Shown: positions 5,026-23,135 of the stretch, in pieces | Position numbering within the stretch: position 1 is the stretch's first letter | Layout of the letters: every line of letters starts with the position of its first letter | DNA from: a virus | Lineage: Duplodnaviria > Caudoviricetes | IMG/VR virus record: IMGVR_UViG_3300045580_000568 | Location: 1 to 25,228 of that record | Direction: 5' to 3' (one strand) | DNA: 25,228 bases | The notes under the pieces: generated by a model | Database searches by the model: none | What the model saw: only the letters and a program-made list of their open reading frames with translations | What the model was told of the DNA's origin: nothing | Translations under genes and position numbers: made by a program

Positions 5026-6147
5026 ATGGCAATAGTTCGTGAAAGCATAATACAGAATCTGTATTCAACGACCCTATCTGCCACTCCAGATTCAAATCTA
5101 CAACTCGGTGAGATTGCAATAAATGCAGCCGACGAAGCAATTTTTATAAAGAACTCTTCTGGTTCCATCAAGAAACTGTCAAGTACTTCTGATTTTACTG
5201 CGAATTACGTAACCATATCTACGTCACAGACCGTGTCTGGTGACAAGGTGTTCTCTGGAACAGTTCTATTTAATAATGGAATAGTATTTGAAGGCAGTAC
5301 TGCAAACGAATTCGAGACCACATTGGGAGTAGTTGATCCTACTTCAGACAATTCAATAAATCTTCCTAATGCAAGCGGAACAGTTGCCCTTGTTGGGGGA
5401 TCTGACACTCATGTCCAGTATAACAGCAGCGGTGCACTTGCTGGATCTTCAAATCTCACATTCGATGGCAGCAACCTCAAGATAGCCCTTCAAGGGGATA
5501 TAAGGCTGGGTGCTTCATCGTCTTCCAATTACATCGGCATTCAGGCTCCTACTGATGTGGCTGCTAGCAACATATATACATTGCCATCATCGGTAGGTTC
5601 CGCAGGTCAGGTGCTAAGCATATCCTCTGCAGTGGGATCTGATGCAAGCCTGCAGTGGTCTTCTACGGTTTCGTCAGTAAACAACCTGACTGGAAATGTC
5701 TCGCTTTTTGCCTATCAATCTACTCCTCCTACTTCCGGCATATCGCCAGGATCAAGGTGGATGGATTCCGAGACGGGAGAAGAATATGTATATGTAAACG
5801 ATGGAAGCTCCAATCAATGGATTCAGCCATCGCTTAATCCGCTGTTCGGCACTGTATCTGGAGTAGTTACATCGGTGACATCTTCATCGTATGCTGCAAC
5901 TGGCTCTGATTATTACATAGGCGTTGACTACGCTGGCAATGTAACCATTACTCTTCCTCCTTCTCCTCAGGCAGGAAGGATGGTTGTTGTGAAAGACGAA
6001 TCAGGTGAGGCTGGCAACGCTGGAAGATCAATAACGATAGTTTCTGACAATGTCGCCGATCTTATTGACAACGATACATCTATTATTCTTAATATAAACA
6101 ACGGTGGCATTAATCTTATATATAGAAATGGATGGAGAATAATATGA
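5026..6147 (+). CDS. Tail fibre-like virion structural protein
   Basis: Start reassigned to ATG 5026 (MAIVRESIIQ, paralleling MARESIIQ of the upstream gene). LQLGEIAINAADEAIFIK adaptor-like motif, FEGST...LPNASGTVAL module, VSSVNNLTGNV, 'G.RW.DS.TG..Y.Y..DG.S.QW' and 'TITLP.SP..G..VVVKDE' modules. Confidence 0.7.
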   Translation: MAIVRESIIQNLYSTTLSATPDSNLQLGEIAINAADEAIFIKNSSGSIKKLSSTSDFTANYVTISTSQTVSGDKVFSGTVLFNNGIVFEGSTANEFETTLGVVDPTSDNSINLPNASGTVALVGGSDTHVQYNSSGALAGSSNLTFDGSNLKIALQGDIRLGASSSSNYIGIQAPTDVAASNIYTLPSSVGSAGQVLSISSAVGSDASLQWSSTVSSVNNLTGNVSLFAYQSTPPTSGISPGSRWMDSETGEEYVYVNDGSSNQWIQPSLNPLFGTVSGVVTSVTSSSYAATGSDYYIGVDYAGNVTITLPPSPQAGRMVVVKDESGEAGNAGRSITIVSDNVADLIDNDTSIILNINNGGINLIYRNGWRII

Positions 6148-9679: not shown

Positions 9680-10039
9680 ATGCAGCAAACTGCCTTGCGT
9701 TACATCTTGGTCGTTCCTGCTTACAAGCAGATTGCAGTTAACGCCATTTTGCGCAAGCTGGAAGACAGAGCCAAAGCTTTGTATTCCATAGAAAATGGCT
9801 GCTCTAGATTTGGGGTATTTCCCCCATCTCATTTTTATTGTGCATACCTGACTCAAGAGGCATTTGATGTTGCTACTATTGTTTTGGATAACAAAATGTC
9901 TCACTGCTACTGGTGTAGTTTCTTCGATGGGGATTTCGTTTGGGATACTAATTCGGCAGAGTGTGCGACAAGAATTGGGGAAAAAGTGTCTGATAATGAG
10001 TTTCTCAAGTTCATAGGTCTTAAGTCGATAAAAAAGTAA
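9680..10039 (+). CDS. Hypothetical protein immediately upstream of terL
   Basis: ORF 9659..10039. ATG 9680 preferred because it has a purine-rich SD (AGGAAAAGGG) and lies downstream of the putative promoter. TAATG coupling to terL. No TerS motif recognised. Confidence 0.55.
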   Translation: MQQTALRYILVVPAYKQIAVNAILRKLEDRAKALYSIENGCSRFGVFPPSHFYCAYLTQEAFDVATIVLDNKMSHCYWCSFFDGDFVWDTNSAECATRIGEKVSDNEFLKFIGLKSIKK

Positions 10040-11871
10040 TGGCAAAAAGAGGAAGACCAACAAAACCTAGCGAGTTCCTTAGACAGCTAGGAGATCTTAG
10101 AAAGGTAATAGAGAGCACATCTACATCCTCGGATGTGCATAGGAAAATCCCTTCAATAGAGGAGTTCATGGACAGCGAGGACTATCTAGCCTTGCCTTTG
10201 AGAACTCCTCAGCCTGTAAAACTTTTCCCCATGCAGAGGATAGCACTTAAGGCTTTTTATAGAGGCACAGAAGGCAATGAAAATCTTGTGCTTACAAAAG
10301 AAGAGCTGCAACTTTGTCGTGATATGGGCTTGGACGATGAGGATAATGGCGATTTTATATCCAAATATGAATCCGGCAATTTATTTACTGAAATGGTTCT
10401 TGTATGGGGCAGAAGGTCGGGAAAAGATTTTTGCGTTGCAATTATAGCTCTGTATGAAGCTCTTAAGTTGCTAGAAGCTCCCAGTGGCGATCCTCATGCC
10501 CTCTATGGGCTAGGTGGAGGAGCTCCTTTTAATATTCTTACGATAGCAAACTCTGCTTCTCAGGCTCAGGTTCTTTTCAATGAAATAAAAGACAAAATAC
10601 TTCCGTCCAAGTATTTTCAGACCAAGATGAGCAATGAGAGCATAACTAGTGACTCCATACATTTGCTTACTCCAGCAGACATGAAGAAAAACATGGAGAT
10701 GAAGGCTAAAAACCTTCCTCAGACATTGGGAAGCGTTATAATAAAATCAGGTCACAGCAATTCTGACTCATTGGCTGGTATAGGTTGCTACTGTCTTCTG
10801 CTGGACGAGATAGGTCTTTACAAGCAGACATCGGGAGCATCAGGCGGAGAGGCTATTTATAGAACACTTACTCCTGCAACCGCTACTTACGTTAGGAAGA
10901 AGAAATTTATAGACAAGGATGGAAATGAAGTAGAAAAATCCATATATGATGGTAAGATTATATGCATAAGCAGCCCTCGAGGAAAGGAAGGCATATTCTA
11001 TGAATTATTTTCTGGTTCTAAGTCAGTCCCTCACCGTATAACATGCAGGCTTCCAACTTGGAAGGTTAACATAAACCAGTCACTTGAAGATCTTCGGACT
11101 AAATTTGGAGCAATGAGCGACGAAGAGTTCATGATGGAGTTTGGTGCAGAATTCTCGGGAATGTCTGGCCAGACATTTTTCTCAAGAGATGTGGTGGAGT
11201 CATGTTTTGTAAACAATCTTAAGCTTAAGGAAAGAGGAGAGGCAGGTAGGATGTATTATTGCCATCTTGATCCTGCTACGAGTTCTCACAATTATGCTTT
11301 GGCTGTAGTCCATAGAGAGGACTTTGTAAATAAAGAGACAGGAAAAGCAGATTTTAGAGTTGTAGTTGACCACCTTAAGGTATGGACTCCGAGTAAAAAT
11401 AGGCCTATAGTTAGCAGAGAAATAGACGACTATATCATTAAATTAAATCAAAACTTTCTTCTAGCCCAGGTGTCTTTTGACCAGTGGAATTCCGCTCAGA
11501 GCATAGAGAACCTTAGGAAACATGGTATCCCAGCCAAGCTTACAAGATTTACAAAAAGATACAAAATAATTATATACGACAACTTGTACGACATAGCAAG
11601 TTCTGGCAGACTGAAGATTCCGCACGATGATATACTGAAAAACGAAATGATATATCTTCAGAGAAGGTTTACTCCTACAGGATACAGGGTTTTTGCCAAA
11701 AAAGACGGTCTAGTAAAAACAGATGATTCTGTGGATGCGCTGGCTGGTGCTTGCTATGGATGCATTCAGGAAAATGTAGAAAGGCTGCCAAGCGGAAGGC
11801 TGGCTAGAATGAATTTATGGAGTCTACCATCAAGTTCTCCAGGATTGAGTAATCCCTTTTTTAACAGATAA
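10039..11871 (+). CDS. terL: Terminase large subunit
   Basis: Q motif (LFPMQ), Walker A WGRRSGKD, ANSASQA, Walker B LLLDEI, coupling motif ISSP.G, EFGAEF, and RNase H/RuvC-like nuclease acidic residues HLDPA, FDQWNS and DDSVDAL. Confidence 0.93.
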   Translation: MAKRGRPTKPSEFLRQLGDLRKVIESTSTSSDVHRKIPSIEEFMDSEDYLALPLRTPQPVKLFPMQRIALKAFYRGTEGNENLVLTKEELQLCRDMGLDDEDNGDFISKYESGNLFTEMVLVWGRRSGKDFCVAIIALYEALKLLEAPSGDPHALYGLGGGAPFNILTIANSASQAQVLFNEIKDKILPSKYFQTKMSNESITSDSIHLLTPADMKKNMEMKAKNLPQTLGSVIIKSGHSNSDSLAGIGCYCLLLDEIGLYKQTSGASGGEAIYRTLTPATATYVRKKKFIDKDGNEVEKSIYDGKIICISSPRGKEGIFYELFSGSKSVPHRITCRLPTWKVNINQSLEDLRTKFGAMSDEEFMMEFGAEFSGMSGQTFFSRDVVESCFVNNLKLKERGEAGRMYYCHLDPATSSHNYALAVVHREDFVNKETGKADFRVVVDHLKVWTPSKNRPIVSREIDDYIIKLNQNFLLAQVSFDQWNSAQSIENLRKHGIPAKLTRFTKRYKIIIYDNLYDIASSGRLKIPHDDILKNEMIYLQRRFTPTGYRVFAKKDGLVKTDDSVDALAGACYGCIQENVERLPSGRLARMNLWSLPSSSPGLSNPFFNR

Positions 11872-11908: not shown

Positions 11909-12619
11909 ATGTTCAACCTATCAAAATTTATAAACAAAGTATTCGGCATGGAAAAAATTGCTGCAAGGGAATCCGAGCTAGAGGCAGAGAGGAAGAAGCA
12001 GGGATTATCTGCAGGCGAAGATACTGTTCAAAAGGCTCTGCATGTCGACAGGCATGACGAGGATATGCCTGTTATTGAATCTAGTCTTGACGATGCCAGG
12101 TCTGGATCGGATGTCGATTCCGTCATAGAAGCATCTATAGAAAATCATAAGGGGTATGCTGGCAGGCAGTCAGATAAAACTGACAACTATGGAGATGTTA
12201 CTCCCATGTCTGTGGCTTCTGAATCATGGGACTCAGCGGCTCGTGAATTGTACAGAAAAGAACTTGAAAAAATGGGCGAAAATAAATCTTTGCTCAGTAA
12301 GTACATTGGAGACAGGCACAATATTGAACTGAAGAAGAAAAGTATTCCCGCTGCAAACTATGGTCTTCCTAATAATCCAGAAAGATTCTCTTCTTTTGAT
12401 GGAGTTCCAGTTGCTGATGCCACTAAGAATATGAAGAATTATTCTAGCAAACCTAAGATAGAGAAGATTGCTTCCAACATAATGGACATAGATGCCATGA
12501 GGTTTGCAATAGAGTATTCTGCAGCGCAAAGAGGATTCAAGACTCAGAAGGAAGAGACTATTCTTGCTAATTTGACTTCAGAAAAGAAGAGAATACTTAG
12601 CGGGAATATAAGTGTTTAA
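11909..12619 (+). CDS. Hypothetical protein (putative head-associated)
   Basis: 236-aa ORF starting MFNLSKF. Contains EKIAA and EKIAS motifs. Confidence 0.65.
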   Translation: MFNLSKFINKVFGMEKIAARESELEAERKKQGLSAGEDTVQKALHVDRHDEDMPVIESSLDDARSGSDVDSVIEASIENHKGYAGRQSDKTDNYGDVTPMSVASESWDSAARELYRKELEKMGENKSLLSKYIGDRHNIELKKKSIPAANYGLPNNPERFSSFDGVPVADATKNMKNYSSKPKIEKIASNIMDIDAMRFAIEYSAAQRGFKTQKEETILANLTSEKKRILSGNISV

Positions 12620-13091
12620 GATATTGTCCTCATCTTACCTGAGGAGAACAGCTCAGAGCAGATCTGGAACTCCTGTGGCTTTTCAAAGTCCATTCGAGAA
12701 AAAAGATCCATACAAGTTGTATACTTTGCCAAATGATGGCAACGGCAGAAAAATGACCACTATGGGTACTCAGGGCTTCAGTGGTCAGCCTTCGGATGTT
12801 TCTAGCGCAATGGTTGGCGGCACTAAATTTGAAGGTGTAAATCCAGACATTCCGCACCCATTCTCTGAACGAGGCGATGATAAATCTGGATATTCTGATC
12901 CAGATCATCCGTTTTACCCTGATGACAGTCAGCCATCAGGGGGCACGGGCAATTGGCAGGCATTTGTCAGCCCAGACAATCCTTTATCTATAAACCAGCA
13001 GGCTTTTGACCCATCTCAATCTCTAGACCGCAATCCTCGTGGTCCTCAAGGCGACCTTGAGAGCAAGATAGTAAGCCTGGGTCGAAAATAG
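12612..13091 (+). CDS. Hypothetical Pro/Gly/Asp-rich protein
   Basis: GTG start overlapping the upstream stop. RRTAQ motif followed by low-complexity, probably disordered sequence. Confidence 0.6.
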   Translation: MFKILSSSYLRRTAQSRSGTPVAFQSPFEKKDPYKLYTLPNDGNGRKMTTMGTQGFSGQPSDVSSAMVGGTKFEGVNPDIPHPFSERGDDKSGYSDPDHPFYPDDSQPSGGTGNWQAFVSPDNPLSINQQAFDPSQSLDRNPRGPQGDLESKIVSLGRK

Positions 13092-13106
13092 CCTAAAGGA
13101 GAAAAT

Positions 13107-13757
13107 ATGAAAGTTAAAGTTACTAATAAAGTCAAGGGAGAGATTGTTATTCCATGCTTGGGTGGATCCCTAAAGAAGGGGGATACTCTGAATATAGATG
13201 CATATAAATCTTCTCATCAGGATGTTCTGTGGGCTCTCCATCATGGATATTTAGAGCTGCTTGATAAGAATCCGGGAGAAGAGCCCATGGGTGATGTTGT
13301 TTGTTTTACAAACAGCACCAATAGGACATTGACTGGAAGGATGTTCGCCAAGCCTCTGGATCCATCTCGAAGCATTGTTGTGAAAAAGAGCGATCCTGTT
13401 TTCGAGGAACTTATGCGAATGGTTACAGCAGGAAAGTTGAAAGCAACCTCAAATGATTCTGAAAAAACAGACAATGAGGTAAAACCAGCTTTAGATAAGC
13501 AAGTTGCAAATGACAACTCTAAGAAAGACGCTGCTAGTAGCAATAACAATGCAATAAGATCATTTAAGAAGACATCTAGCTCAAAAAAGAAAAAAGACAA
13601 CAGTTCCAAGTCTGAACAGGCAAAAAATGATAAAAATTCAGATATTTTGTCTGCTCGGGAGGATAAGGTGTCTGCATCTCCAAAAATAAGTAATGGCACC
13701 ACGGTAATGCAGTCAGATGGGATAATTTTTGCAGATATGAATGGTGAAGTTACATGA
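13107..13757 (+). CDS. Hypothetical protein with two tandem small domains and a Lys/Ser-rich tail
   Basis: Strong SD AAGGAG. Two ~55-aa units ('VTN.......L....L..G....I ... L..GYL' and 'FTN.T...L.....L.P..S.VV ... M..AGKL'). Confidence 0.7.
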   Translation: MKVKVTNKVKGEIVIPCLGGSLKKGDTLNIDAYKSSHQDVLWALHHGYLELLDKNPGEEPMGDVVCFTNSTNRTLTGRMFAKPLDPSRSIVVKKSDPVFEELMRMVTAGKLKATSNDSEKTDNEVKPALDKQVANDNSKKDAASSNNNAIRSFKKTSSSKKKKDNSSKSEQAKNDKNSDILSAREDKVSASPKISNGTTVMQSDGIIFADMNGEVT

Positions 13758-13897
13758 AAAGAATAGCATCAGACAGTGCAAAAAATAAGATAATGAAGAC
13801 TAAGAAGAGAAATAGATCTACTCTTTGTAGATACTTTACTCTTATATATCCTAAGGAATATGCAGAGGGAGTTGCTGGTGGCAAGTGTCCAAAATGA
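13754..13897 (+). CDS. Small basic protein (47 aa), absent from the ORF track
   Basis: ATGA overlap with the upstream stop. Translates to MKRIASDSAKNKIMKTKKRNRSTLCRYFTLIYPKEYAEGVAGGKCPK. Fills the gap and shares a motif with the C-terminus of 16630..17325. Confidence 0.7.
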   Translation: MKRIASDSAKNKIMKTKKRNRSTLCRYFTLIYPKEYAEGVAGGKCPK

Positions 13898-14657
13898 TTC
13901 GTTGAAAGAAACTATAAGTAAGATGGTTATATCTGACTTAAACGGATATGGCATTGAATTTGTAAATGGAGCTGTAATTTTAAATAAGCAAAACCAAGGC
14001 GATGTAGCTGAATTCTGCAGAAAGCAAAAAGAAAAGCTAGTTGATCTAGAGTCTAATCTTAAGCAGGTATGGAATTCAATACCTCTTTACTTGGCTGAGG
14101 ACATTGGAGTCTCTTCCCCAGAAGGGAGAAGAGTGCTTAATCAAGCGATATACTGCCTATACAGGAAGTCTGTCCGTCATGACGTGCTCAAGTCTATGAG
14201 GATATCTCATTATTTGGAAAAAGCCTATTCGGAATCTTTTGAAAGATGGAGCGATAAGACCTCTGAAGACCTTGCATACGTTTGCATGAAAATAGATCAG
14301 ATAGAAAGCAGTATAAGAAAGACTGCTTTTACATGCGCTGCGGTTAGATACCTTGACGACGAGATAAAGAAATTTGCTCAAACAAATGGCACTTCAGTCC
14401 AGGGTCCATATTCCAATCTTGATCTGCCCGTGGCAGAGCGCTGGTACTTGTGGTCTGATGTTTCAGACGAGGTTGATGGCAGAAGAGACTCAATAAGATC
14501 GTCAAGAAGATACCAGATGGGATTGGAGGATTCTGATCCATCAAGTGTAAAAGAAGGTTTCTACTGGCGGGAACTTAGAAATGAGCCATATAAATTCGAC
14601 ATGCTTTATCCAGACTCTCCGTATCCATACAGGAGTTTAATATGGGGGAATCCATGA
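13878..14657 (+). CDS. Hypothetical protein (putative head-associated)
   Basis: ORF 13860..14657. GTG 13878 preferred (SD GAGGGAG 6 nt upstream). RKTAF and KKFAQ motifs precede a Trp/Tyr/Pro-rich C-terminal segment. Confidence 0.65.
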   Translation: MASVQNDSLKETISKMVISDLNGYGIEFVNGAVILNKQNQGDVAEFCRKQKEKLVDLESNLKQVWNSIPLYLAEDIGVSSPEGRRVLNQAIYCLYRKSVRHDVLKSMRISHYLEKAYSESFERWSDKTSEDLAYVCMKIDQIESSIRKTAFTCAAVRYLDDEIKKFAQTNGTSVQGPYSNLDLPVAERWYLWSDVSDEVDGRRDSIRSSRRYQMGLEDSDPSSVKEGFYWRELRNEPYKFDMLYPDSPYPYRSLIWGNP

Positions 14658-15016
14658 GTAATATAAATGCAAAGACATCAATGCTTTCCTTGTTTGTATC
14701 ATCGAATAGCGGTAATAGTCCATTTCAGGGAAGAATTCTTCTTGACATGTTCAAGTTTGGCAAGGGCAAGTTTTTAGGCATACCTTCTCATGTTGGGTCT
14801 TCTCAGATAAATGACCTCAAGATGTCAGGATTGATAGATATCGATAGGAACAACAACATATACCCGACAAAAAATGGCAGAAGAGTGCTGGAAAACCTTA
14901 TCCTTGGAGAAGATGACTGCACGTATCCTCTTAAGGAGGCAAGGGCTGCGGATAAGTTCAAAAAAGGAATTCCGCTTCATCTTTTGGCAAAATCTTCTTC
15001 TGTCTCGAGGATGTGA
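14654..15016 (+). CDS. Hypothetical protein, possible winged-helix domain
   Basis: ATG 14654 (ATGA overlap, GGGGG SD). 'INDLKMSGLI....NNNIYPTKNGRRVL' resembles the wHTH wing/'T..G' pattern. Confidence 0.5.
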   Translation: MSNINAKTSMLSLFVSSNSGNSPFQGRILLDMFKFGKGKFLGIPSHVGSSQINDLKMSGLIDIDRNNNIYPTKNGRRVLENLILGEDDCTYPLKEARAADKFKKGIPLHLLAKSSSVSRM

Positions 15017-15222
15017 TGGAAGTCGTGTTCTTTTATAAAGATCAAGCAGACAAGAAGAGCCTGGTAAACAGGATAGGCAATCAGGACTGGGCTGAAGATT
15101 TCGAGGTATCTGACAGTCAGTCAAGAGTAATAGTTTCTGTTGCATCTGGCATGGAGGATGAAGCTGATTCATTCTCCATAAAAGAAAGATATCGAGGAAG
15201 AAAGGTAATAATCGATGCCTAG
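15013..15222 (+). CDS. Small hypothetical protein
   Basis: 69 aa, overlaps both neighbours and fills the gap in a coupled gene array. Confidence 0.55.
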   Translation: MMEVVFFYKDQADKKSLVNRIGNQDWAEDFEVSDSQSRVIVSVASGMEDEADSFSIKERYRGRKVIIDA

Positions 15223-15976
15223 GGGTATGGCTCAGATATCTTGCGAAATAGCTGATAATCCGTCAGCATATCAGCGCGGTCTTATGTTTAGAAAAGACCT
15301 GCCAGAGGACAGCGGCATGCTTTTTGATTTCAAAAAAAGCCAAGGACTTTCATTCTGGGGCATGAACACATTTATTCCTTTAGACATTGCATTTATCACA
15401 GATGAAGGAATAATAGACAGTATAGGCATTATAAAACCGCATAGACTTGAGTCTGTGAAAAGCACAAAGCCATGCAAATACGCAGTTGAAGTTCCTGAAG
15501 GAACTTTTTCTAGGCATGGAATCTCATCTGGTGACTTTGCTGAAATATTGCGCAACGGATCAACGGCTAGCGTTATACTGATTAAAAAAATACCACATGG
15601 CAGCATTAAAGTGGCGGCATCCGACATGGATGTCGGTGGTAAGTTCAATATAGAAAGCGAGACAGAGCCGGCCAAGGATTCCTTAAAAAGAATTACTACT
15701 GCGCCTGCTGTGCCCAGTTTTTCTGGGGTATTTGATGCTCTTAAGTGGTGTATCGCAAATAACCAAGTATGTAGAATATCATACAGAACCGAAAGCGGCA
15801 GGGTGGTCAATAGGGATGTTGAGCCTCACGATATATTCTATAGTAGCAATAAACGTCATCAAATATTGTCGGCTTGGGACGAAAATGCTGTAAGTCCTCG
15901 TAGTTATATTGTAATGAGAATAATTTCTTATGCAATTCCTGGAAGGAAATTCACTCCAAAAATACAACTTTACTAA
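15215..15976 (+). CDS. DUF192-domain / WYL-domain fusion protein
   Basis: N-terminal EIAD....QRGLMFR..LP...GMLF.F....SFW..NT.IPLDIAFI...YAVEVP.G (DUF192). C-terminal ISYRT..G....RDVEPH......LSAWD.....RSY...RI (WYL, SH3-like). Confidence 0.8.
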   Translation: MPRGMAQISCEIADNPSAYQRGLMFRKDLPEDSGMLFDFKKSQGLSFWGMNTFIPLDIAFITDEGIIDSIGIIKPHRLESVKSTKPCKYAVEVPEGTFSRHGISSGDFAEILRNGSTASVILIKKIPHGSIKVAASDMDVGGKFNIESETEPAKDSLKRITTAPAVPSFSGVFDALKWCIANNQVCRISYRTESGRVVNRDVEPHDIFYSSNKRHQILSAWDENAVSPRSYIVMRIISYAIPGRKFTPKIQLY

Positions 15977-15977
15977 T

Positions 15978-16571
15978 ATGGAAAACTTAATTAAAGAAAT
16001 TATCATATCAGCACAGGGGTTAGACAACAGGGGCATGCACAAGGAGTCCAAGGCTCTAGATGATATTGCCAGTTCTCTTATCATGATAAAAGAGGCTCAA
16101 TACGACGGCACTCAAGGGTATTTTGTAAGAAATACAAGATGCTGGAACGGTTGTTTCAGAGAGAAAAGAGCCAAAGGGATGACATCCAATGAGGCTTGGG
16201 AGTCATGCCATTCCGAGTGGTTAGATACTGCAATGGGCAATGGCTCTGAAAAATGGGACAAATATGCTGGAGACGAATCTCCAATCAAGGTAGCCAGCGT
16301 CAACGACTTCATATCCATATCCGCAGACGAGGCCCTTAACAATGTAATTAATGATAGGGTGGACAGTGGAATCTCCATCGAGCATGCTGTGCCCATGAGC
16401 CTTGCAGAGAGAAGCATAGCAATCGCTTCTAAGCTTTCTGGCGTAGCCGATGAACTGCAAAAAATAGCGTCTGAGACATCTGTTTCTGGAACATCTGAAA
16501 CTTTGTCAAGCATAGCTGAAGAGATATCCAACATAGCAGCGGAAGAATATGTAAAATCTATATCATATTAA
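15978..16571 (+). CDS. Hypothetical protein (putative head-associated)
   Basis: ATG 15978 directly after the upstream stop. Helical 'A..LD..G....S..LD' N-terminus, then KEAQ, a Cys/Trp segment (CWNGC...AWESC), KVAS and KIAS. Confidence 0.65.
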   Translation: MENLIKEIIISAQGLDNRGMHKESKALDDIASSLIMIKEAQYDGTQGYFVRNTRCWNGCFREKRAKGMTSNEAWESCHSEWLDTAMGNGSEKWDKYAGDESPIKVASVNDFISISADEALNNVINDRVDSGISIEHAVPMSLAERSIAIASKLSGVADELQKIASETSVSGTSETLSSIAEEISNIAAEEYVKSISY

Positions 16572-16601
16572 AAAGGTATTGATTGATAAAAATAGTATAT
16601 A
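16572..16601 (+). promoter_or_regulatory. Putative phage late promoter, AAAGGTAT-N16-TATATA
   Basis: GGTAT 16575-16579, 16 nt, TATATA at 16596. Intergenic, followed by SD AAGGAG and ATG 16630. Confidence 0.55.
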
Positions 16602-16629
16602 AAATGCCAATATTAGCAAGGAGCAATAA

Positions 16630-17325
16630 ATGAAATTCTTTTCAAGCAAGATATATGTGAATGGAGCAAGCAGGAGTTTTGATGACATCGTAAAGGATGT
16701 CGCTGGGGGCATGAAGAAGCAGGCCAGCGTGCAGGCTGATGCACCACAGCAGGTTAAAGAAGCCAAGAAGGCAAAAACAAACGCTGATGGTGATCCTAAA
16801 GGCAAGGGCAAGGGCAAGGGCGAGAGCGTATTAACTCCTGCCCAGAAAAAATTGCCTCCTGCTCTTAGGAATGCGATAGAAGGCAAAAAGTCATCTGTCA
16901 ACGGAGAGGAAGTTAAAATAGCTTCTATCAAGGCAAGAGACAATAATACTGCAGAGGTTGAATTTGCTCCAACGGTAGCAAAGTATGCAGAGATCGAGAT
17001 ATCTGATGATGGTCGCGTTAAATCTGCTGGATGGAGCGAGTCAATGGGTTCCACTGAGTCCATGATGTCCGCGGAGTCCAAGGAGGAAGGCGACAAGCAT
17101 GAGGACGATGATGTGGAGGCTGCAGCCTCTGGCGCAGAAGCAGGCGTAGGTGAAGGTGCAGAGGCAGGAATGGGATGCGAGTCCTGTGGCACTACCATGG
17201 CTTCTTCCAGCGACTTTGTCAAGGTAGCCAATCTTACTGACAAGCAGAAGTCAGCTTTCCGTAGTTACTGGCAGAATGTGTGGCCGAAAGAGTTCATTGA
17301 CGCCGTATTAGATAAGGATCAGTAA
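16630..17325 (+). CDS. Hypothetical protein (putative head-associated, multiple K-x-A motifs)
   Basis: SD AAGGAG. KQAS, KEAK, KIAS, KYAE, KSAG and KVAN motifs, a KGKGKGKG run, LTPAQKKLPPAL, an acidic tract, CESC, and C-terminal YW..VWPKEF.DA. Confidence 0.75.
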   Translation: MKFFSSKIYVNGASRSFDDIVKDVAGGMKKQASVQADAPQQVKEAKKAKTNADGDPKGKGKGKGESVLTPAQKKLPPALRNAIEGKKSSVNGEEVKIASIKARDNNTAEVEFAPTVAKYAEIEISDDGRVKSAGWSESMGSTESMMSAESKEEGDKHEDDDVEAAASGAEAGVGEGAEAGMGCESCGTTMASSSDFVKVANLTDKQKSAFRSYWQNVWPKEFIDAVLDKDQ

Positions 17326-17966
17326 TGTCTATACTTCCTGTAGGTCGAAGAGCCGAGATGGTCGGGCAGATGTTTAAGCTGGCTAATGATATGATTAGTC
17401 AGCCTTCTGCTGCTGGTCAATCGCCCATGCCGAACGACCTGCCAGACGCTAGTATTGCACCTGCTAATGATGAGGCAGCGTTGCCCAGTTCGGAGATGGG
17501 CAACGCTGCTGATGATTCAGCAAGCTTTCACGATTTTGTTTACAAGCAATTGCAGTCATCTTTAGGTATAGATCCTCAGATAATATCCAGAAAGAGTAGT
17601 TCTTTAATAAAATTTGAAGAAGACATAGACTCTGGAAAAATGTCTGGTCATTTCTTGGTTCCAGTGGAATTGCCTAGTGGCGAACGTGTTTCTCACGAAA
17701 AAGCCAAGGAAATAGCTGCTGCTGTATTTTCTCAATTTGGACTAAAGGGAAAGATAGGAAGAGATGAGAAGAGGAATTTCTATGTCATATCTTTTGTGAC
17801 AAAAGAAGCAGAAGTTCCAAAGAGTTCAAATGAAGGATCATTTTCAAATTTGCCAGACAATGAAGTTGAAAAAAAGATAACTACAGCATCAGTTCAGAAT
17901 GATATGATTAGTATGAGAAAGAACATGCTTGTGGATGCTCTTCGAAGAAATGGATACATAAAATGA
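17325..17966 (+). CDS. Hypothetical protein
   Basis: 213 aa, TAATG overlap with the upstream gene and ATGA overlap with the downstream gene. Confidence 0.65.
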   Translation: MSILPVGRRAEMVGQMFKLANDMISQPSAAGQSPMPNDLPDASIAPANDEAALPSSEMGNAADDSASFHDFVYKQLQSSLGIDPQIISRKSSSLIKFEEDIDSGKMSGHFLVPVELPSGERVSHEKAKEIAAAVFSQFGLKGKIGRDEKRNFYVISFVTKEAEVPKSSNEGSFSNLPDNEVEKKITTASVQNDMISMRKNMLVDALRRNGYIK

Positions 17967-18640
17967 TATTTAGAAATAAAGATGCTGCTAACAGTTCCAT
18001 ATTTGGAGATAGTAAACAAGAGGAAACAAAGGCTCCTGCTGCGGATGATTCTTTTCTCGAGTCTATGAGAAGAAAAGCATGGAGTGAGCCAAGCAAAGGC
18101 GGAGATGGGATAAGAAATTCAATAAATAGAGCATCTTCTTCATCTGATGATGCTTCTCGTTCTGGAAGAGCATTTTTAGGAATGCATTCTGCTAGAAGCA
18201 TATTCGACAACTCCACATCTTTAGAAAAAAGCGCAGACAGCAGGCTGATTTCAGACATTAAAAAAATAGAAGACAAGGCAATTCGTAGCGCTCAAGAGAG
18301 TGAGCGACGATCAGTGTCTAATCCTGCTGGAGAAGAATTCAAGGCTAGCTCTTCCATGCACGCAAAGGAGCATGGAAGAATGGGCACTTCAGCCAGGAGC
18401 GTAAGCATATTTGATGCAAAGCCTTTTGAGCGTCTTTCAGATAAAAAAGCTGATCTAAAGAAGGATCAAGTGGCGAGTTCTGAAAAAACAGCATCTTTAT
18501 CTGCTGGAAGGCAAATGACTTCTAATTCTGTTTTTGAGAAATCTTTCGATTCTCTAAGTCAATCAGAAAAAAAAGATACTGTTCACCAAAGTTCTGTTGA
18601 TAGAATATGGAATGCTCTGAAAGGAAAAGAGAATGGCTAA
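17963..18640 (+). CDS. Hypothetical Ser/Lys-rich protein
   Basis: 225 aa, repeated S-I/V-F-D/G/E motifs (SSIFG, RSIFD, VSIFD, NSVFE), plus RSAQ and KTAS. Confidence 0.65.
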   Translation: MIFRNKDAANSSIFGDSKQEETKAPAADDSFLESMRRKAWSEPSKGGDGIRNSINRASSSSDDASRSGRAFLGMHSARSIFDNSTSLEKSADSRLISDIKKIEDKAIRSAQESERRSVSNPAGEEFKASSSMHAKEHGRMGTSARSVSIFDAKPFERLSDKKADLKKDQVASSEKTASLSAGRQMTSNSVFEKSFDSLSQSEKKDTVHQSSVDRIWNALKGKENG

Positions 18641-19643
18641 TGTTTTTAATTTTAGCAAATTTTCACAATTAACAGATTCTGTTCCTGCAAGAGAAACCAT
18701 TACAGAAGATCCAGCATTTGGATCATCTGCTAATCCGTCATTGCTTATGGATCAGGCTCCAGATGCTTCTGGGTTTCCAGCAGATGAAATGGAATCAGCG
18801 ATCAGTGTTCCTGTTTTTAATAATGGATGCGAGCTTTTTAATAAACTTAAAGAGTATAGCCAGGGTAAGAAGGATCCCGGAGAAGCTTATTCAGAAGTAT
18901 GGAACAACTATTTTGCAAAGTTTGTTTCAGGAAGCGAAGGTTCGTCTGCTTTTGAGGATGGCTTGAAGAGATTTTATGAGCAGCCATACGACAGCAACGA
19001 AGCTAACAAGATAGCAATGGATCTATTCGAGATATATAAAAACATGGCTGGAACTACCACTCAACCAATAATGGCCGAACAGAAAGCAGCATCAGATATC
19101 GACTCCATAGTCAAGCTTAGCGATGATGCCATTTCTGCCATGGCAAGAACCTCAGCGAAAGCAAGATCTTCCAAGTCTTACAACATGGCTAAGATAGCCC
19201 AGCACAAGTCCATGGTTGATTCTGTTATAATGACTGGTCCAAATCAAGTAAGTATTTCTCCATTTACCAGAGACTTGCAGTCATCAATGCACCTTGTTGA
19301 GCAAAACAAAGGCTTTGGCCTGCGCGTTGGCGATATACTCGACATAGACTTCGAATCCATATGGCGCAGCAGCGTCATGGATAAGTACTACCGAAGCACC
19401 AGAGATTCTTCTGGAATGTACGGTGGTGGATACATAGATGATAAGTTTGAAGTGAATAGATACATTCCAGAAGGCAACAACTATCAGTTGCCTCCCGGAA
19501 TTCGCAATAGACCATACATACCAGAATCTGGTTTGTTAGAAGCAAGAATGGAAGTCGCCCGTGGTCAGAAGGACAGACTCAGCGATCCAAGAAAATTCGC
19601 AAAAGTGTATAATCATTCTTTTTCCAATAAAAAAAAAGTCTGA
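18633..19643 (+). CDS. Hypothetical protein (putative head-associated), short form of a possibly frameshifted gene
   Basis: 336 aa. VFNFSKFSQ and YNMAKIAQ motifs. Ends AAT AAA AAA AAA GTC TGA. Confidence 0.75.
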   Translation: MANVFNFSKFSQLTDSVPARETITEDPAFGSSANPSLLMDQAPDASGFPADEMESAISVPVFNNGCELFNKLKEYSQGKKDPGEAYSEVWNNYFAKFVSGSEGSSAFEDGLKRFYEQPYDSNEANKIAMDLFEIYKNMAGTTTQPIMAEQKAASDIDSIVKLSDDAISAMARTSAKARSSKSYNMAKIAQHKSMVDSVIMTGPNQVSISPFTRDLQSSMHLVEQNKGFGLRVGDILDIDFESIWRSSVMDKYYRSTRDSSGMYGGGYIDDKFEVNRYIPEGNNYQLPPGIRNRPYIPESGLLEARMEVARGQKDRLSDPRKFAKVYNHSFSNKKKV

Positions 19644-19849
19644 CTCTTAATAAGAATGCCAACAGGATAATTAGTCCAGGAGAAGCCCTTGACCGGGCTT
19701 TTTCTGTTATAGATGGTCCAAAGACTAATCCTAATAAGGGCAAGAAGCGTCTATGTCCTATATGTCAAAGCGATTGCGCGGCTGATGCTGGCAGTTGCCA
19801 CAATTGTGGAGCGATACTCTCGGAGAGAAACGCTGTCTATGGAAAATGA
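19631..19849 (+). CDS. Zinc-ribbon C-terminal extension of 18633 gene, reached by -1 frameshift or slippage
   Basis: -1 frame is open from the A-run to TGA 19847-19849 and has no ATG/GTG/TTG. It encodes SLTLNKNANRIISPGEALDRAFSVIDGPKTNPNKGKKRLCPICQSDCAADAGSCHNCGAILSERNAVYGK. Confidence 0.65.
   Translation, partial: KKSLTLNKNANRIISPGEALDRAFSVIDGPKTNPNKGKKRLCPICQSDCAADAGSCHNCGAILSERNAVYGK
19683..19703 (+). terminator. Intrinsic terminator-like hairpin
   Basis: AAGCCC-TTGACC-GGGCTT followed by TTT (5 T after the GC core), 40 nt downstream of the 19643 stop. The stem is short. Confidence 0.4.
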
Positions 19850-19868
19850 ACCATCCGAAATGTAGATT

Positions 19869-22800
19869 ATGACAAAGAAAAACAACAAGGAAAATGAAGT
19901 CTTAAAGACATCTCAGTCATCTGGGGACATGAGCAAGCTTGCCTCTGGAGGTGCTGTTCATATGCCCATTACTAAGGCTGCTCAGTACGTTGGAGGCTCC
20001 GCAAGCACCATATTTACTCAGCCTATGTTCTTCAGTCCGCTTCATACTCCCCAGAACTGGCAGATAGCAAGCAAGAGAAGGGAAGTAACCCAGTGGGCAA
20101 GATTCTACTATGAGAATGAGCCCAAGGCTGCCGCTGGAGTTGATTTCTATGCCAATTTTCCCATGAACGGGTTTAAGTTGGAATGTAAGGACAGAAAAGT
20201 TCTTGCATTCTTTGAGCATATGGTGGAAAAGCTAGATCTGGATGGCTGGCTTCGCAAGATCAGTCACGAGTACTACTTGATAGGCGATGTTTTCGTATTC
20301 ACAGAAGTTGAATGTCCGGTTTGCAATGGAACTGGAGAGCGTTCTGATGGAATGATATGCAATCATCCAGACGGGGTCATAAAGAGAATACTAGTATTGA
20401 ATCCAGACTTCGTTGAAGTGCAGCGCACTCAACTTGCAGACGAGCCATCGGTGGTGCTTCTTCCAGATGATGACTTGAAGAAGGTTGTTTCTCAGAAGCG
20501 ACCTCTTGAAGTGTATAACAGAATACCAGAGAATGTCAAGAAGATGGTGATGTCTGGCGCTCCCATACCTCTTTCTCCAAGATGTGTAAGTCATATAAAG
20601 AGAAAAGGAGCGCCCTACGGCACTTACGGAGAATCTTTGCTTAGAAGACTATTCACGATTATATCTTATAAAACAAAGCTAATGACGGCAAATTGGATTG
20701 CTGCAGAGCGTCATATTCTTCCAGTTCGAGTGGTGAAGGTGGGCAGCGAAAATCGTCCTGCAAGCGAAGCCGATATTGCCGATGCTCAGTCTCAACTTGC
20801 TTCGGTTGCAAACGATCCCAATCTTACCATCGTAACACATCATGCTTTTGAAATGGACTTTGTCGGAGCTACAGGTAAAATTCATGACATGAGCACTCAG
20901 ATGGAGGCCATAGGCAAAGAGATGCTTGATGGTCTCATGCTGCCTCAGACATTGCTCAACGGCGAGATGGCAGGGTATTCTTGTCACGATGAATCAACGC
21001 TCACTCTTACTGACAGTGGCTTTAAGAGATGGGATGAAATAAATGCTAACGACAAAATAGCATGCTACAACCCTGATACTAAGGAATTAGAATATCATAA
21101 CTATATAGACAAGCATGTGTACGATTTCAATGGAGAAATGGTTCAGTTTTCCACTGACAAGATAGATATATGTGTCACGCCAAACCATAGAATGTGGTCT
21201 GCAAAGAGAGATAGTGATATATTTGAGTTTATAGAAGCCAAAGATGTAAAACCAAGAGCCTCATTTGTTGGTGTTGTTCAGGGTTTCTGCGGTAATAGCC
21301 AAGACAGCTTTGTCATAGGAGACTTAGAAATTCCAATTTATCAGTATTGTGAACTAGCAGGATTGTTTGTTAGCGAAGGATATACATCAAAAGACAAGCG
21401 AAGAAGTGGCAATCGTCACACTTTTAGCATATGTCAAAAAGAAAATGGCAAAGCCTTTGAAAAAATTGAAGATTGTCTTGACAAGACAAATATGAATTAT
21501 TGGATAAACAATAATGCGTTTAATGTATGGAGCCCCTGTTTGGCTGATCACTTTCATGAAGAATACGGCCATAGATCAGTTAACAAAAAATTGCCTACAT
21601 GGTTAAAAAATCTTTCTCCAGAATATCTTGAAATACTTCTGAAAGCAGCTCTTGCTGGAGACGGATATGAGCATCGCCACCATGGTCGTAAGGCTAATAA
21701 TTATGTCTATTGTACATCTAGCAAGCAGTTGAGTGAAGACATTGCGGAAATTGCTTTTAAATGCGGATATTCAGTAAAAATAGTTAATAGAAAAAGTAGG
21801 ATAAGCAACAAGAAGTATTTCAATGAAAAGGGTTATGAAATAGCGACCAGGCATGCTCAGTACGAAGTTCAAATATCAAATGGATTTAAAGGAAGAAAGC
21901 CTACGCTTTGCTCTAAGTCATTGAAATATGCCAATAAGGAAAAGACGCTTGTTCCCTATTCTGGCAAAGTATTCTGCTTCACTGTTCCCCATGGCATATT
22001 CGTCACCATGAGAAATGGCAAAATAGCCATACAGGGAAATTCAGCTGCAGTAGGAGTCGAAACATTAATAAGAAGGCTAGAGACATGGAGGAACGAACTT
22101 GCTCAATGGGTGGAGAAGAATATATTTCTTCCAGTTGCTCAAATGCAGGGATTCGTTGATGTTTTTAAGTCAAAACTAGTAGGGGAAACGGTATATCTAT
22201 ATCCGAGGCTCAAGTGGAACGATCTGAATCTAAGAGACAATACGTCAAAGTTGCAAAACTTAATGCAATTGCATGACAAAGGTCTCATATCAACTCAGAA
22301 ACTTTTAGAAGAATTTAATATAGATTATGACACTGAGATAAATAGGCTGAGAGAAGAGCAGATAACAGCAGGTAAGGGCGGTTCTGTCATCGGAGGGTCT
22401 GGTGGGGGTGGAGATTCTGGTGGCGGAATGCCACCACTGGCGGGCGGCGGACCTCCACCTGACATGGGCGGCGGACCTCCTCCTGATATGGGCGGCGGAC
22501 CTCCTCCTGACATGGGCGGCGCTGGCGGTATGCCGCCGCTTGCAGGAGCAGAGGCACCACCTGCTGGAGGTGAGGCTGGAGGTGGCGCTCCGCCACCAGC
22601 GGCAGGAGGACTATCTTCATCGGCAGGAGTCATACCTGATAAGATATACAAGAAGGGAAAGGCTCCCAAGGCTGAAAAAAAAGATACCCATCCTTCTGAG
22701 CAGCCCAAGCCTGTTTACCTTACCAAGCCAGAGCAAAAACTTTATTCTATATTGTCAAGGCTAAAGATTCCTTATAGACTGTTTGCGCAGTTCAAGCAGA

Positions 22801-23135
22801 ATACTCCTTATTCAACTAGTCCTTATCTGTTGGACTTTGCTTATCCAGAGATAGGAATAGACCTTGAGGCAGATGGAGACTTCTGGCATTCTGATCCAGA
22901 GTCTGTTTCTAGGGACAAGCAGAGAGATGAAAACCTGGCTTCTATGGGATGGCGTGTTGTCAGAATCAAGGAGCATGCATTGAATAATTCTGCTGACGAA
23001 GTTGAGAAGATAGTCTATGCCAATATAAGGGAAGCAGCTTTAGAAAGAAAACAGTTAAATAAGAAGGCTTCATCAGGTAAAATAAGTATCATAGATAGCG
23101 AATTATGCACAGTGTACAAGCCAGCGGAAGAATGA
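19869..23135 (+). CDS. Portal protein with intein, Gly/Pro linker and C-terminal DUF559/Vsr-like endonuclease domain
   Basis: Lies between terL and the protease. Portal-like features: 'R.YY..EP.....VD....FP..GF', 'Y..IGDVF', 'LNPD.V', 'H.K.....YG.YG.S.L', 'I...ML.GL..P..LL.G....YS/SA.V', 'W..LNL', 'KGLIS.Q.LL'. Predicted 735 aa after splicing. Confidence 0.8.
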   Translation: MTKKNNKENEVLKTSQSSGDMSKLASGGAVHMPITKAAQYVGGSASTIFTQPMFFSPLHTPQNWQIASKRREVTQWARFYYENEPKAAAGVDFYANFPMNGFKLECKDRKVLAFFEHMVEKLDLDGWLRKISHEYYLIGDVFVFTEVECPVCNGTGERSDGMICNHPDGVIKRILVLNPDFVEVQRTQLADEPSVVLLPDDDLKKVVSQKRPLEVYNRIPENVKKMVMSGAPIPLSPRCVSHIKRKGAPYGTYGESLLRRLFTIISYKTKLMTANWIAAERHILPVRVVKVGSENRPASEADIADAQSQLASVANDPNLTIVTHHAFEMDFVGATGKIHDMSTQMEAIGKEMLDGLMLPQTLLNGEMAGYSCHDESTLTLTDSGFKRWDEINANDKIACYNPDTKELEYHNYIDKHVYDFNGEMVQFSTDKIDICVTPNHRMWSAKRDSDIFEFIEAKDVKPRASFVGVVQGFCGNSQDSFVIGDLEIPIYQYCELAGLFVSEGYTSKDKRRSGNRHTFSICQKENGKAFEKIEDCLDKTNMNYWINNNAFNVWSPCLADHFHEEYGHRSVNKKLPTWLKNLSPEYLEILLKAALAGDGYEHRHHGRKANNYVYCTSSKQLSEDIAEIAFKCGYSVKIVNRKSRISNKKYFNEKGYEIATRHAQYEVQISNGFKGRKPTLCSKSLKYANKEKTLVPYSGKVFCFTVPHGIFVTMRNGKIAIQGNSAAVGVETLIRRLETWRNELAQWVEKNIFLPVAQMQGFVDVFKSKLVGETVYLYPRLKWNDLNLRDNTSKLQNLMQLHDKGLISTQKLLEEFNIDYDTEINRLREEQITAGKGGSVIGGSGGGGDSGGGMPPLAGGGPPPDMGGGPPPDMGGGPPPDMGGAGGMPPLAGAEAPPAGGEAGGGAPPPAAGGLSSSAGVIPDKIYKKGKAPKAEKKDTHPSEQPKPVYLTKPEQKLYSILSRLKIPYRLFAQFKQNTPYSTSPYLLDFAYPEIGIDLEADGDFWHSDPESVSRDKQRDENLASMGWRVVRIKEHALNNSADEVEKIVYANIREAALERKQLNKKASSGKISIIDSELCTVYKPAEE
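20982..22040 (+). mobile_element. Intein with LAGLIDADG homing endonuclease (353 aa)
   Basis: N-junction GYS|CHDESTLTLT.SGFK (block A), TPNHRMW (block B), LAGLFVSEG and LLKAALAGDG (LAGLIDADG blocks C/E), YSGKVFCFTVP (block F), C-junction IAIQGN|S. Confidence 0.92.
22443..22514 (+). repeat. 24-nt tandem repeat x3 (GGGPPPDM)
   Basis: GGCGGCGGACCTCC(A/T)CCTGA(C/T)ATG at 22443, 22467 and 22491, flanked on both sides by GGMPPLAG. Confidence 0.95.

Follow-up and report, generated by a model that had tools for sequence, protein, structure and literature searches.

A conserved A-run before the portal gene in a family of big phages: a very probable recoding site with comparative marks of RNA-polymerase slippage

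In the 25,228-base stretch of tailed-phage DNA analysed here (IMG/VR record IMGVR_UViG_3300045580_000568, positions 1 to 25,228; hereafter the window), the gene directly before the portal gene ends in a run of nine A's which, as far as the comparison of sequences can tell, is a deliberately maintained slip site. Recoding of some kind almost certainly takes place at this run, joining a zinc-ribbon extension to some copies of a 336-aa protein, and the pattern of conservation among homologues makes programmed transcriptional slippage the probable mechanism. The features concerned are collected in Table 1.

Table 1. Features of the window and sites compared with them
Feature	Position	Strand	Remarks
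Terminase large subunit, head-module start	10039..11871	+	phrog_2, E 3.8e-30
Pre-portal gene; its 336-aa short product ends in KKKV	18633..19643	+	head-module protein, K-x-A motifs
Slip site T-A9-G	19628..19638	+	A9 = 19629-19637; -1 frame shut on the 5' side by T plus AA
-1 frame extension, 72 codons (70 new residues)	19631..19849	+	without start codon; long product 405 aa
Frame-0 stop	19641..19643	+	3 nt 3' of the A-run
Hairpin	19678..19707	+	about 40 nt 3' of the run; closest clade only
Zinc-ribbon motif CPIC-x11-CHNC	19754..19810	+	in the extension; small beta domain confident in model of naturally fused homologue
Motif CCGAAAT(C/G)TA	19854..19863	+	3' of the extension stop, 5' of the portal ATG; conserved in closest clade
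Portal gene	19869..23135	+	phrog_16240, E 2.7e-38; Pfam: intein-like LAGLIDADG insert, C-terminal DUF559
gp5 to gp6 site	phage G, run at 5839		T-A9, -1 frame
gp17 to gp18 site	phage G, run at 16357		T-A9, -1 frame
Tail-chaperone-like -1 junction	L173, 1501-1953		A9
Tail-chaperone-like -1 junction	L175, 1225-1908		A_AAA_AAC
Tail-chaperone-like -1 junction	L176, 1336-1818		G_GGA_AAA
Tail-chaperone-like -1 junction	L183		A8
Tail-chaperone-like -1 junction	L184		A9

The proposed slip site and its surroundings

The reading frame of the 336-aa protein closes with AAT AAA AAA AAA GTC TGA, and apart from the A9 within these codons no run of A or T in the window reaches nine. Immediately upstream, TAA at 19628-19630 closes the -1 frame, which then stays open to 19849 without a single ATG, GTG or TTG; its stop lies 19 nt ahead of the portal ATG. 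An earlier note on this DNA, made from the letters of the window, had described this arrangement of an A9 end and a start-less zinc-ribbon frame, and our coordinates are the same. Addition of one A, or a tandem -1 shift at the in-phase X_XXY_YYZ heptamer (A_AAA_AAA, 19631-19637), leads to a product of 405 aa, while loss of one A or addition of two leads to one of 338 aa. Compared with Pfam, the extension gives weak zinc-ribbon matches, all under the cut-off (DZR, E 0.002).

A 3' stimulator pairing 19640-45 with 19673-79, which the note had suggested, does not form: no such stem is found, and the MFE fold leaves 19638-19664 unpaired (z +1.0). Members of the window's clade do have a hairpin 25-65 nt 3' of the run (z -1.6 to -5.2), but its registers differ between them, it is absent from the clade whose extension lies in the +1 frame, and in the window its distance from the run is too great for a frameshift stimulator. 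The motif CCGAAAT(C/G)TA, present in single copy and kept in L004-L006, L056, L058, L060 and L061, is possibly a promoter or a translation signal. No terminator was called on the + strand near the slip site or in the extension, and an Rfam search returned nothing close to a gathering score. A frame-0 ATG reading frame at 19713-19865 was considered as a gene and rejected; it is broken in L001-L003, and strain differences are missense in its frame.

We place the pre-portal gene in the head module because of the gene order in G001, a complete record of 461 kb, where the terminase is followed by several unknown genes, the pre-portal gene, the portal, a 1542-aa gene, a 195-aa structural gene and the major head protein. 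The best cultured match to the window's portal is gp14 of Bacillus phage G, at 32.7%. The window's portal also has a Gly/Pro-rich repeat stretch, and its DUF559 domain is nuclease-like; the portal of G001 carries a comparable domain at its C-terminus. Upstream, the head-module genes at 11909-18640 are rich in K-x-A-[QSAD], possible prohead-protease sites, and 15215-15976 is a fusion of DUF192 and WYL. The region at 59-2781 carries what appears, by its motifs, to be a sugar-nucleotide cluster (cytidylyltransferase, heptose epimerase, cupin and HAD-methyltransferase).

Conservation of the A-run

Homologues of the pre-portal gene fall into at least 351 cluster representatives (50% identity) at E 0.001, and none was found among genome contigs or deposited (cultured) phages. 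For comparison of the loci themselves, 136 sequences, the window included, were reduced to 101 distinct usable loci by dropping 35 that were duplicates or whose contig ended within 100 nt of the stop; 92 of these form the in-group, and nine distant out-group loci lacking the ribbon were set aside. A metagenome scan contributed 80 matches of 132. The tree is a quick tree with many forks open, and statistics on RNA folding and Shine-Dalgarno (SD) pairing were taken on 46 representatives below 85% identity.

Each of the 24 homologues of comparable length closes with a KKK tract, and 91 of the 92 in-group loci have A9-A13 at the junction (A9 in 30, A10 in 53, A11 in six, and A12 and A13 in one each). 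The exception, L035, has A7 and is in frame, but other single-base breaks occur in the same record (G006), and outside this one error-prone record no in-group locus has a run of 6-8 A. The first A falls on codon position 1, 2 or 3 in 57, 1 and 33 loci, so that the run is independent of codon phase. Relative to the gene, the extension lies in the -1 frame in 76 of the 91 loci, in the +1 frame in nine and in frame 0 in six; both directions of shift are thus present among homologues. Seven of the nine +1 loci form a single clade (quick-tree SH-aLRT 97), and the two single ones, L086 and L111, could be errors. Whatever the frame of the extension, a stop in a frame other than its own is found no more than 10 nt from the run (91/91), the base 5' of the run is T or C in all 46 representatives, and the Cys motif is found in 81 of 85 out-of-frame extensions.

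The note had taken in-frame fused homologues as grounds for refutation; in six of the 91 loci gene and ribbon are indeed fused in frame, yet every one of these retains A10-A13 with a stop 0-1 nt 3' of the run in another frame, and they favour recoding. Among the 150 listed of the 351 representatives, KKK forms the end of 93; the ribbon is in frame in 36, KKK preceding it in 26 of these and being absent in ten. Alignment of homologous loci, which the note had called for, finds the A-run, the nearby stop and the Cys-motif extension kept in nearly all of the in-group. The note's proposal that a conserved recoding site adjoining the portal gives rise to two isoforms, of 336 and 405 aa, is strongly supported. 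Its further claim of a fixed ratio between them can apply only lineage by lineage, because in some the long form is encoded in frame.

Chance can be excluded as the source of this pattern because AAG makes up 31% of upstream Lys codons (473/1547) and yet never interrupts the run, because only one of 82 other KKK tracts lies within an A9, and because other runs of nine or more are rare (five in 322,658 nt). In whole records the A9 is the only one on either strand in G005 (68 kb) and G004 (94 kb) and one of three in G003 (494 kb); G001 has ten A9 runs, of which only the junction run has the design of a slip site.

In a distant clade (L044, L047-L050 and L052-L055) the conserved domain stands before the portal with a different, ribbon-less tail, and L047 alone among these has an in-frame T-A9-G. 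L042, L043 and L045 have tails of 685-1113 aa with apparent intein-like inserts and retain the terminal A10-A11 run. A word search for longer homologues found one. The homologue P0021 is labelled Candidatus Pacearchaeota in NCBI and is probably a phage contig in a bin.

Selection on the extension

A homopolymer is an obvious place for an assembly error, and the note had named A10 in the reads as an outcome that would undo its case. On contigs, where rare variants are invisible, the A9 stands: contigs of four runs align to this stretch without an indel, a strain from an independent run (X5, which is not flagged as a potential source) spans it with 13 substitutions and no gaps, and L056, whose protein is 98% identical to that of the window, has A9 as well. 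X3, which leaves the site uncovered, and X6, whose cover extends for 25 letters to one side of it, were left out of the count. The six strain differences within the extension comprise five silent third positions and a change of TGA to TAA in the -1 frame, and five of the six are missense if read in frame 0. Across seven clades dN/dS of the extension is 0.12-0.25; the window's own clade gives no such figure, its pS of 0.76 being saturated (pN 0.32). By these substitution patterns, the extension is under purifying selection. Homopolymers are indeed error-prone, and L035, perhaps with L086 and L111, looks like an error, but the same break in 85 distinct loci, the gap-free independent strain, the silent strain differences and the low dN/dS effectively refute both an assembly error and a decaying pseudogene.

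Selection also reaches back to the run itself. The first 26 codons 3' of it show an excess of third-position differences in all five clades tested, and in the +1 clade the 26 codons before its ATG are conserved in frame (pN 0.31, pS 0.61). This bears on a further possibility, that the zinc ribbon belongs to a small gene of its own, begun at a near-cognate start or by re-initiation, and that the A-run merely encodes lysines. Some ATG, GTG or TTG does precede the first Cys in 54 of 81 ribbon-bearing extensions, and in the +1 clade an ATG stands four codons ahead of this Cys in all seven members and could start a separate short ribbon. However, 27 of the 81, the window among them, have no such start, and where starts exist their positions are scattered. 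CTG at 19640, which the note had considered as a start, is replaced by CTA, ATA and CTA in L002, L003 and L062. With selection on the codons after the run, fused homologues in existence and the run uninterrupted despite the use of AAG upstream, we consider a separate gene very improbable.

Alternatively, the run might slip during DNA replication, such that the population would be a mixture of ON and OFF genomes. Run lengths of 9 to 13, the 36 fused sequences among the 150 listed of 351 representatives, and sister lineages in different states (L026 off and L030/L033 on; L042 off and L045 on) are what such phase variation might leave behind. Yet the state is fixed in all 84 clusters at 95% identity, and three near-identical strains all have A9, although these are contigs, in which rare variants are hidden. 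Moreover, changes in length are compensated, the frame being preserved (A11 in L020, L107 and L129), and 85 of 91 loci are out of frame despite selection on the extension. Phase variation is accordingly an improbable account.

Slippage by polymerase or ribosome

We propose that the A-run is a site of programmed transcriptional slippage. While its 9-base rA:dT hybrid lies on A9, the multisubunit RNA polymerase of the host would realign and add or drop A's. Normal translation of A9 mRNA would yield the 336-aa protein, A10 mRNA would yield the 405-aa protein with its zinc-ribbon tail, and A8 or A11 mRNA would lead to the 338-aa dead end. Both products would be needed; in the lineages that encode the extension in frame, which keep the run and the adjoining stop, slippage would produce the short form instead. 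By analogy, the ratio would be in the tens of percent. Slippage is favoured over ribosomal shifting because the run shows a length threshold and is independent of both phase and direction. Nine A/T is the reported threshold or working length for bacterial polymerase (PMC5009743, PMC1088944), and the occurrence of both directions in one family is a criterion for transcriptional realignment (PMC3711429). Regarding the polymerase, three of three near-complete relatives have a sigma-70 gene and none has an RNA polymerase beta gene, in a search that covered the beta subunit.

Some observations count against slippage. The -1 direction is by far the commonest (76/91), the ten fused representatives without KKK (among 36 such in the 150 listed) imply that some lineages manage without the switch, and with the polymerase of E. 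coli, A runs cause less slippage than T runs (PMC6260861). The competing mechanism is ribosomal recoding on a uniform mRNA, either by a tandem -1 shift at A_AAA_AAA or by sliding on AAA codons, in both cases free of a stimulator; in the +1 clade it would take a -2 or +1 shift. It gives the same 405-aa product, so that mass spectrometry by itself would not tell the two apart, and both processes may act at one site. An in-phase A_AAA_AAA is present in all 76 of the -1 loci, with three consecutive AAA codons in 53 and two in 23. Phage frameshifts without a stimulator are known (PMC5009743), sliding on iterated AAA codons reaches several frames (PMC4363877), and the tail-chaperone-like -1 junctions of one clade (L173, L183 and L184), presumably ribosomal, also have A8-A9.

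Against this, ribosomal recoding leaves the floor of nine A's in every phase unexplained, and likewise the +1 clade, since the direction is not uniform across the family. A_AAA_AAG, the heptamer on which E. coli ribosomes shift most readily (PMC5009743), occurs in only 24 of the 76 -1 loci, and no other type of heptamer is found. There is neither an SD signal nor 3' structure: over the 46 representatives, nested folds of the 60 nt after the run have a mean z of -0.63 versus -0.79 in the control, and upstream SD pairing, at -2.6 kcal/mol, is weaker than in control windows (-3.6), with one representative in 46 reaching -6 kcal/mol or better. Sites of the ribosomal type in the same phages can be shorter, such as A_AAA_AAC in G001, G_GGA_AAA in G005 and A_AAA_AAG at gp22/gp23 of phage G. 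We regard ribosomal recoding as unlikely. The note had put -1 ribosomal frameshifting first and A9 transcriptional slippage in brackets; it is the bracketed mechanism that fits the homologues better.

The tail-chaperone-like junctions are labelled by their design and position, without a family match; they have A8-A9 in one clade, and A6 and G_GGA_AAA in others.

Protein features and a possible function

The 336-aa protein has no match in Pfam, PHROGs, PDB sequences, BFVD or the Atlas, in searches made with weak structural models; fold searches gave nothing clear (none at E 0.001 in BFVD, best Z 5.5), and Atlas matches were under 0.9. Residues from about 61 to 140 are modelled with confidence as a helical domain, and the conserved C-terminal part, taken by itself, gives a poor model (pTM 0.36). 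For a naturally fused homologue the model (pTM 0.29) shows the ribbon as a small domain of its own, carried by a disordered linker. The likeliest role of the pre-portal product would be as an abundant internal head protein or a portal-associated one, of which a fraction carries the zinc-ribbon module.

What might become of this module is suggested by the K-x-A motifs. K-x-A-[QSAD] is enriched in the pre-portal family (537 occurrences versus 111.5 in shuffled sequences) and in the head-module genes of the window, and 31 of 46 representatives, where 7.4 would be expected, have a K-x-A no more than 13 residues from the long-form junction. We suggest, by analogy, that K-x-A at the junction is a maturation site, recognised by the prohead protease. 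The literature searched offered no support for K-x-A as a protease site; the motif of the SPN3US prohead protease is A-X-E (PMC10052503). Both forms of the protein would enter the prohead, where cleavage at the junction may cut off the zinc-ribbon piece during maturation, freeing it at a set fraction of the copy number.

Similar sites in Bacillus phage G

Bacillus phage G (NC_023719.1, L136; 497,513 bases), the one megaphage known in culture, has 18 runs of A9 or longer, and only two of these combine the end of a long reading frame with a long -1 frame. Both lie between the terminase and the major capsid gene, and both are unannotated. They resemble the window's site in their head-module position, their T-A9 followed by a stop within 3 nt, their -1 frame leading into the next annotated gene and a junction KKK-V-T-A as in L026/L031; they differ in having no zinc ribbon, and between gp5 and the pre-portal gene of the window no homology is detected (hhalign 0.2%). 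With no relation detected between these two, the recoding trick would recur in unrelated head genes. We also tried gp5 as a homologue of the window's 16630-17325, and no homology was detected.

A relative of phage G, G002 (58% in gp5), keeps both runs (L163 and L168), the second with changed phase, and is without the ATGs annotated for gp6 and gp18. In the unannotated stretch before gp6, 39 of 62 residues are identical between the two phages, and differences fall on the three codon positions in the numbers 16/8/31; the 27 codons before gp18 include 15 identical ones and show no third-position excess (9/9/9). PMC12484599 lists gp5, gp6, gp17 and gp18 as hypothetical, and the only frameshift we found named in it is that of the tail chaperone; PMC8570332 gave the same result. 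In the literature searched, the scope of which did not extend to the 2020 phage G proteomics, the gp5 and gp17 sites are not described as recoded. Elsewhere in this genome, the gp22/gp23 endolysin (L136, 19865-21534) is annotated as joined, with A_AAA_AAG (A6G) at the junction.

Combining these observations, a broader scheme can be put forward tentatively, and as a whole it is rather doubtful. In giant tailed phages that encode sigma factors, a superfamily extending from the uncultured lineages to phage G, slippage of the host polymerase on A9 would be a general means of fixing head-protein stoichiometry in several genes unrelated to one another, and the slipped junction would at the same time create a K-x-A prohead-protease site. 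A minority module, in the present family the zinc ribbon, could thereby ride an abundant protein into the prohead and then be cut free.

Likeness to known systems

The site has analogues in several known systems. In dnaX of Thermus thermophilus, the source of tau and gamma, an A9 late in the gene with stops nearby in the other frames produces a long and a short product, a design that the six in-frame relatives match exactly (PMC5009743, PMC1088944). Unlike dnaX, most lineages here encode the short form and would slip to the long one, and the gene belongs to a phage head module, in at least 351 clusters at 50% identity known here from sequence. A second parallel is tssM1 of Citrobacter rodentium (A11) with tssM3 of Yersinia pseudotuberculosis, where poly-A slippage occurs in a structural gene of a phage-like machine and the ratio matters; one orthologue slips to the long form and the other to the short, at 15-25% (PMC4256274). 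However, slippage is rare among tssM genes, which are cellular, whereas here the run is the rule (91/92 loci) and the setting is a phage. The tail-chaperone G/G-T -1 frameshift is similar in that a morphogenesis gene of a phage receives a C-terminal extension at a set ratio with little or no stimulator (PMC5009743, PMC8570332), but its in-phase heptamers vary, while the head-module site is a pure run of at least nine A's in any phase and direction. The same phages, furthermore, have separate chaperone-like junctions besides the pre-portal A-run.

The phage structural genes in which we know of recoding achieve it at the ribosome. We found no report of polymerase slippage in a head gene of a dsDNA phage, or of the pre-portal family, in the literature searched, most subscription papers falling outside its scope. 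What emerges is a family-wide and deeply conserved head-module recoding site in a large, so far undescribed clade of phages with big genomes, whose records reach 505 kb, bearing comparative marks of polymerase slippage. In consequence, hundreds of database proteins of the pre-portal family would be annotated as truncated, their tails missed or split. Phage G is cultured and has two matching sites, and so the idea of slippage can be tested in a phage grown in the laboratory.
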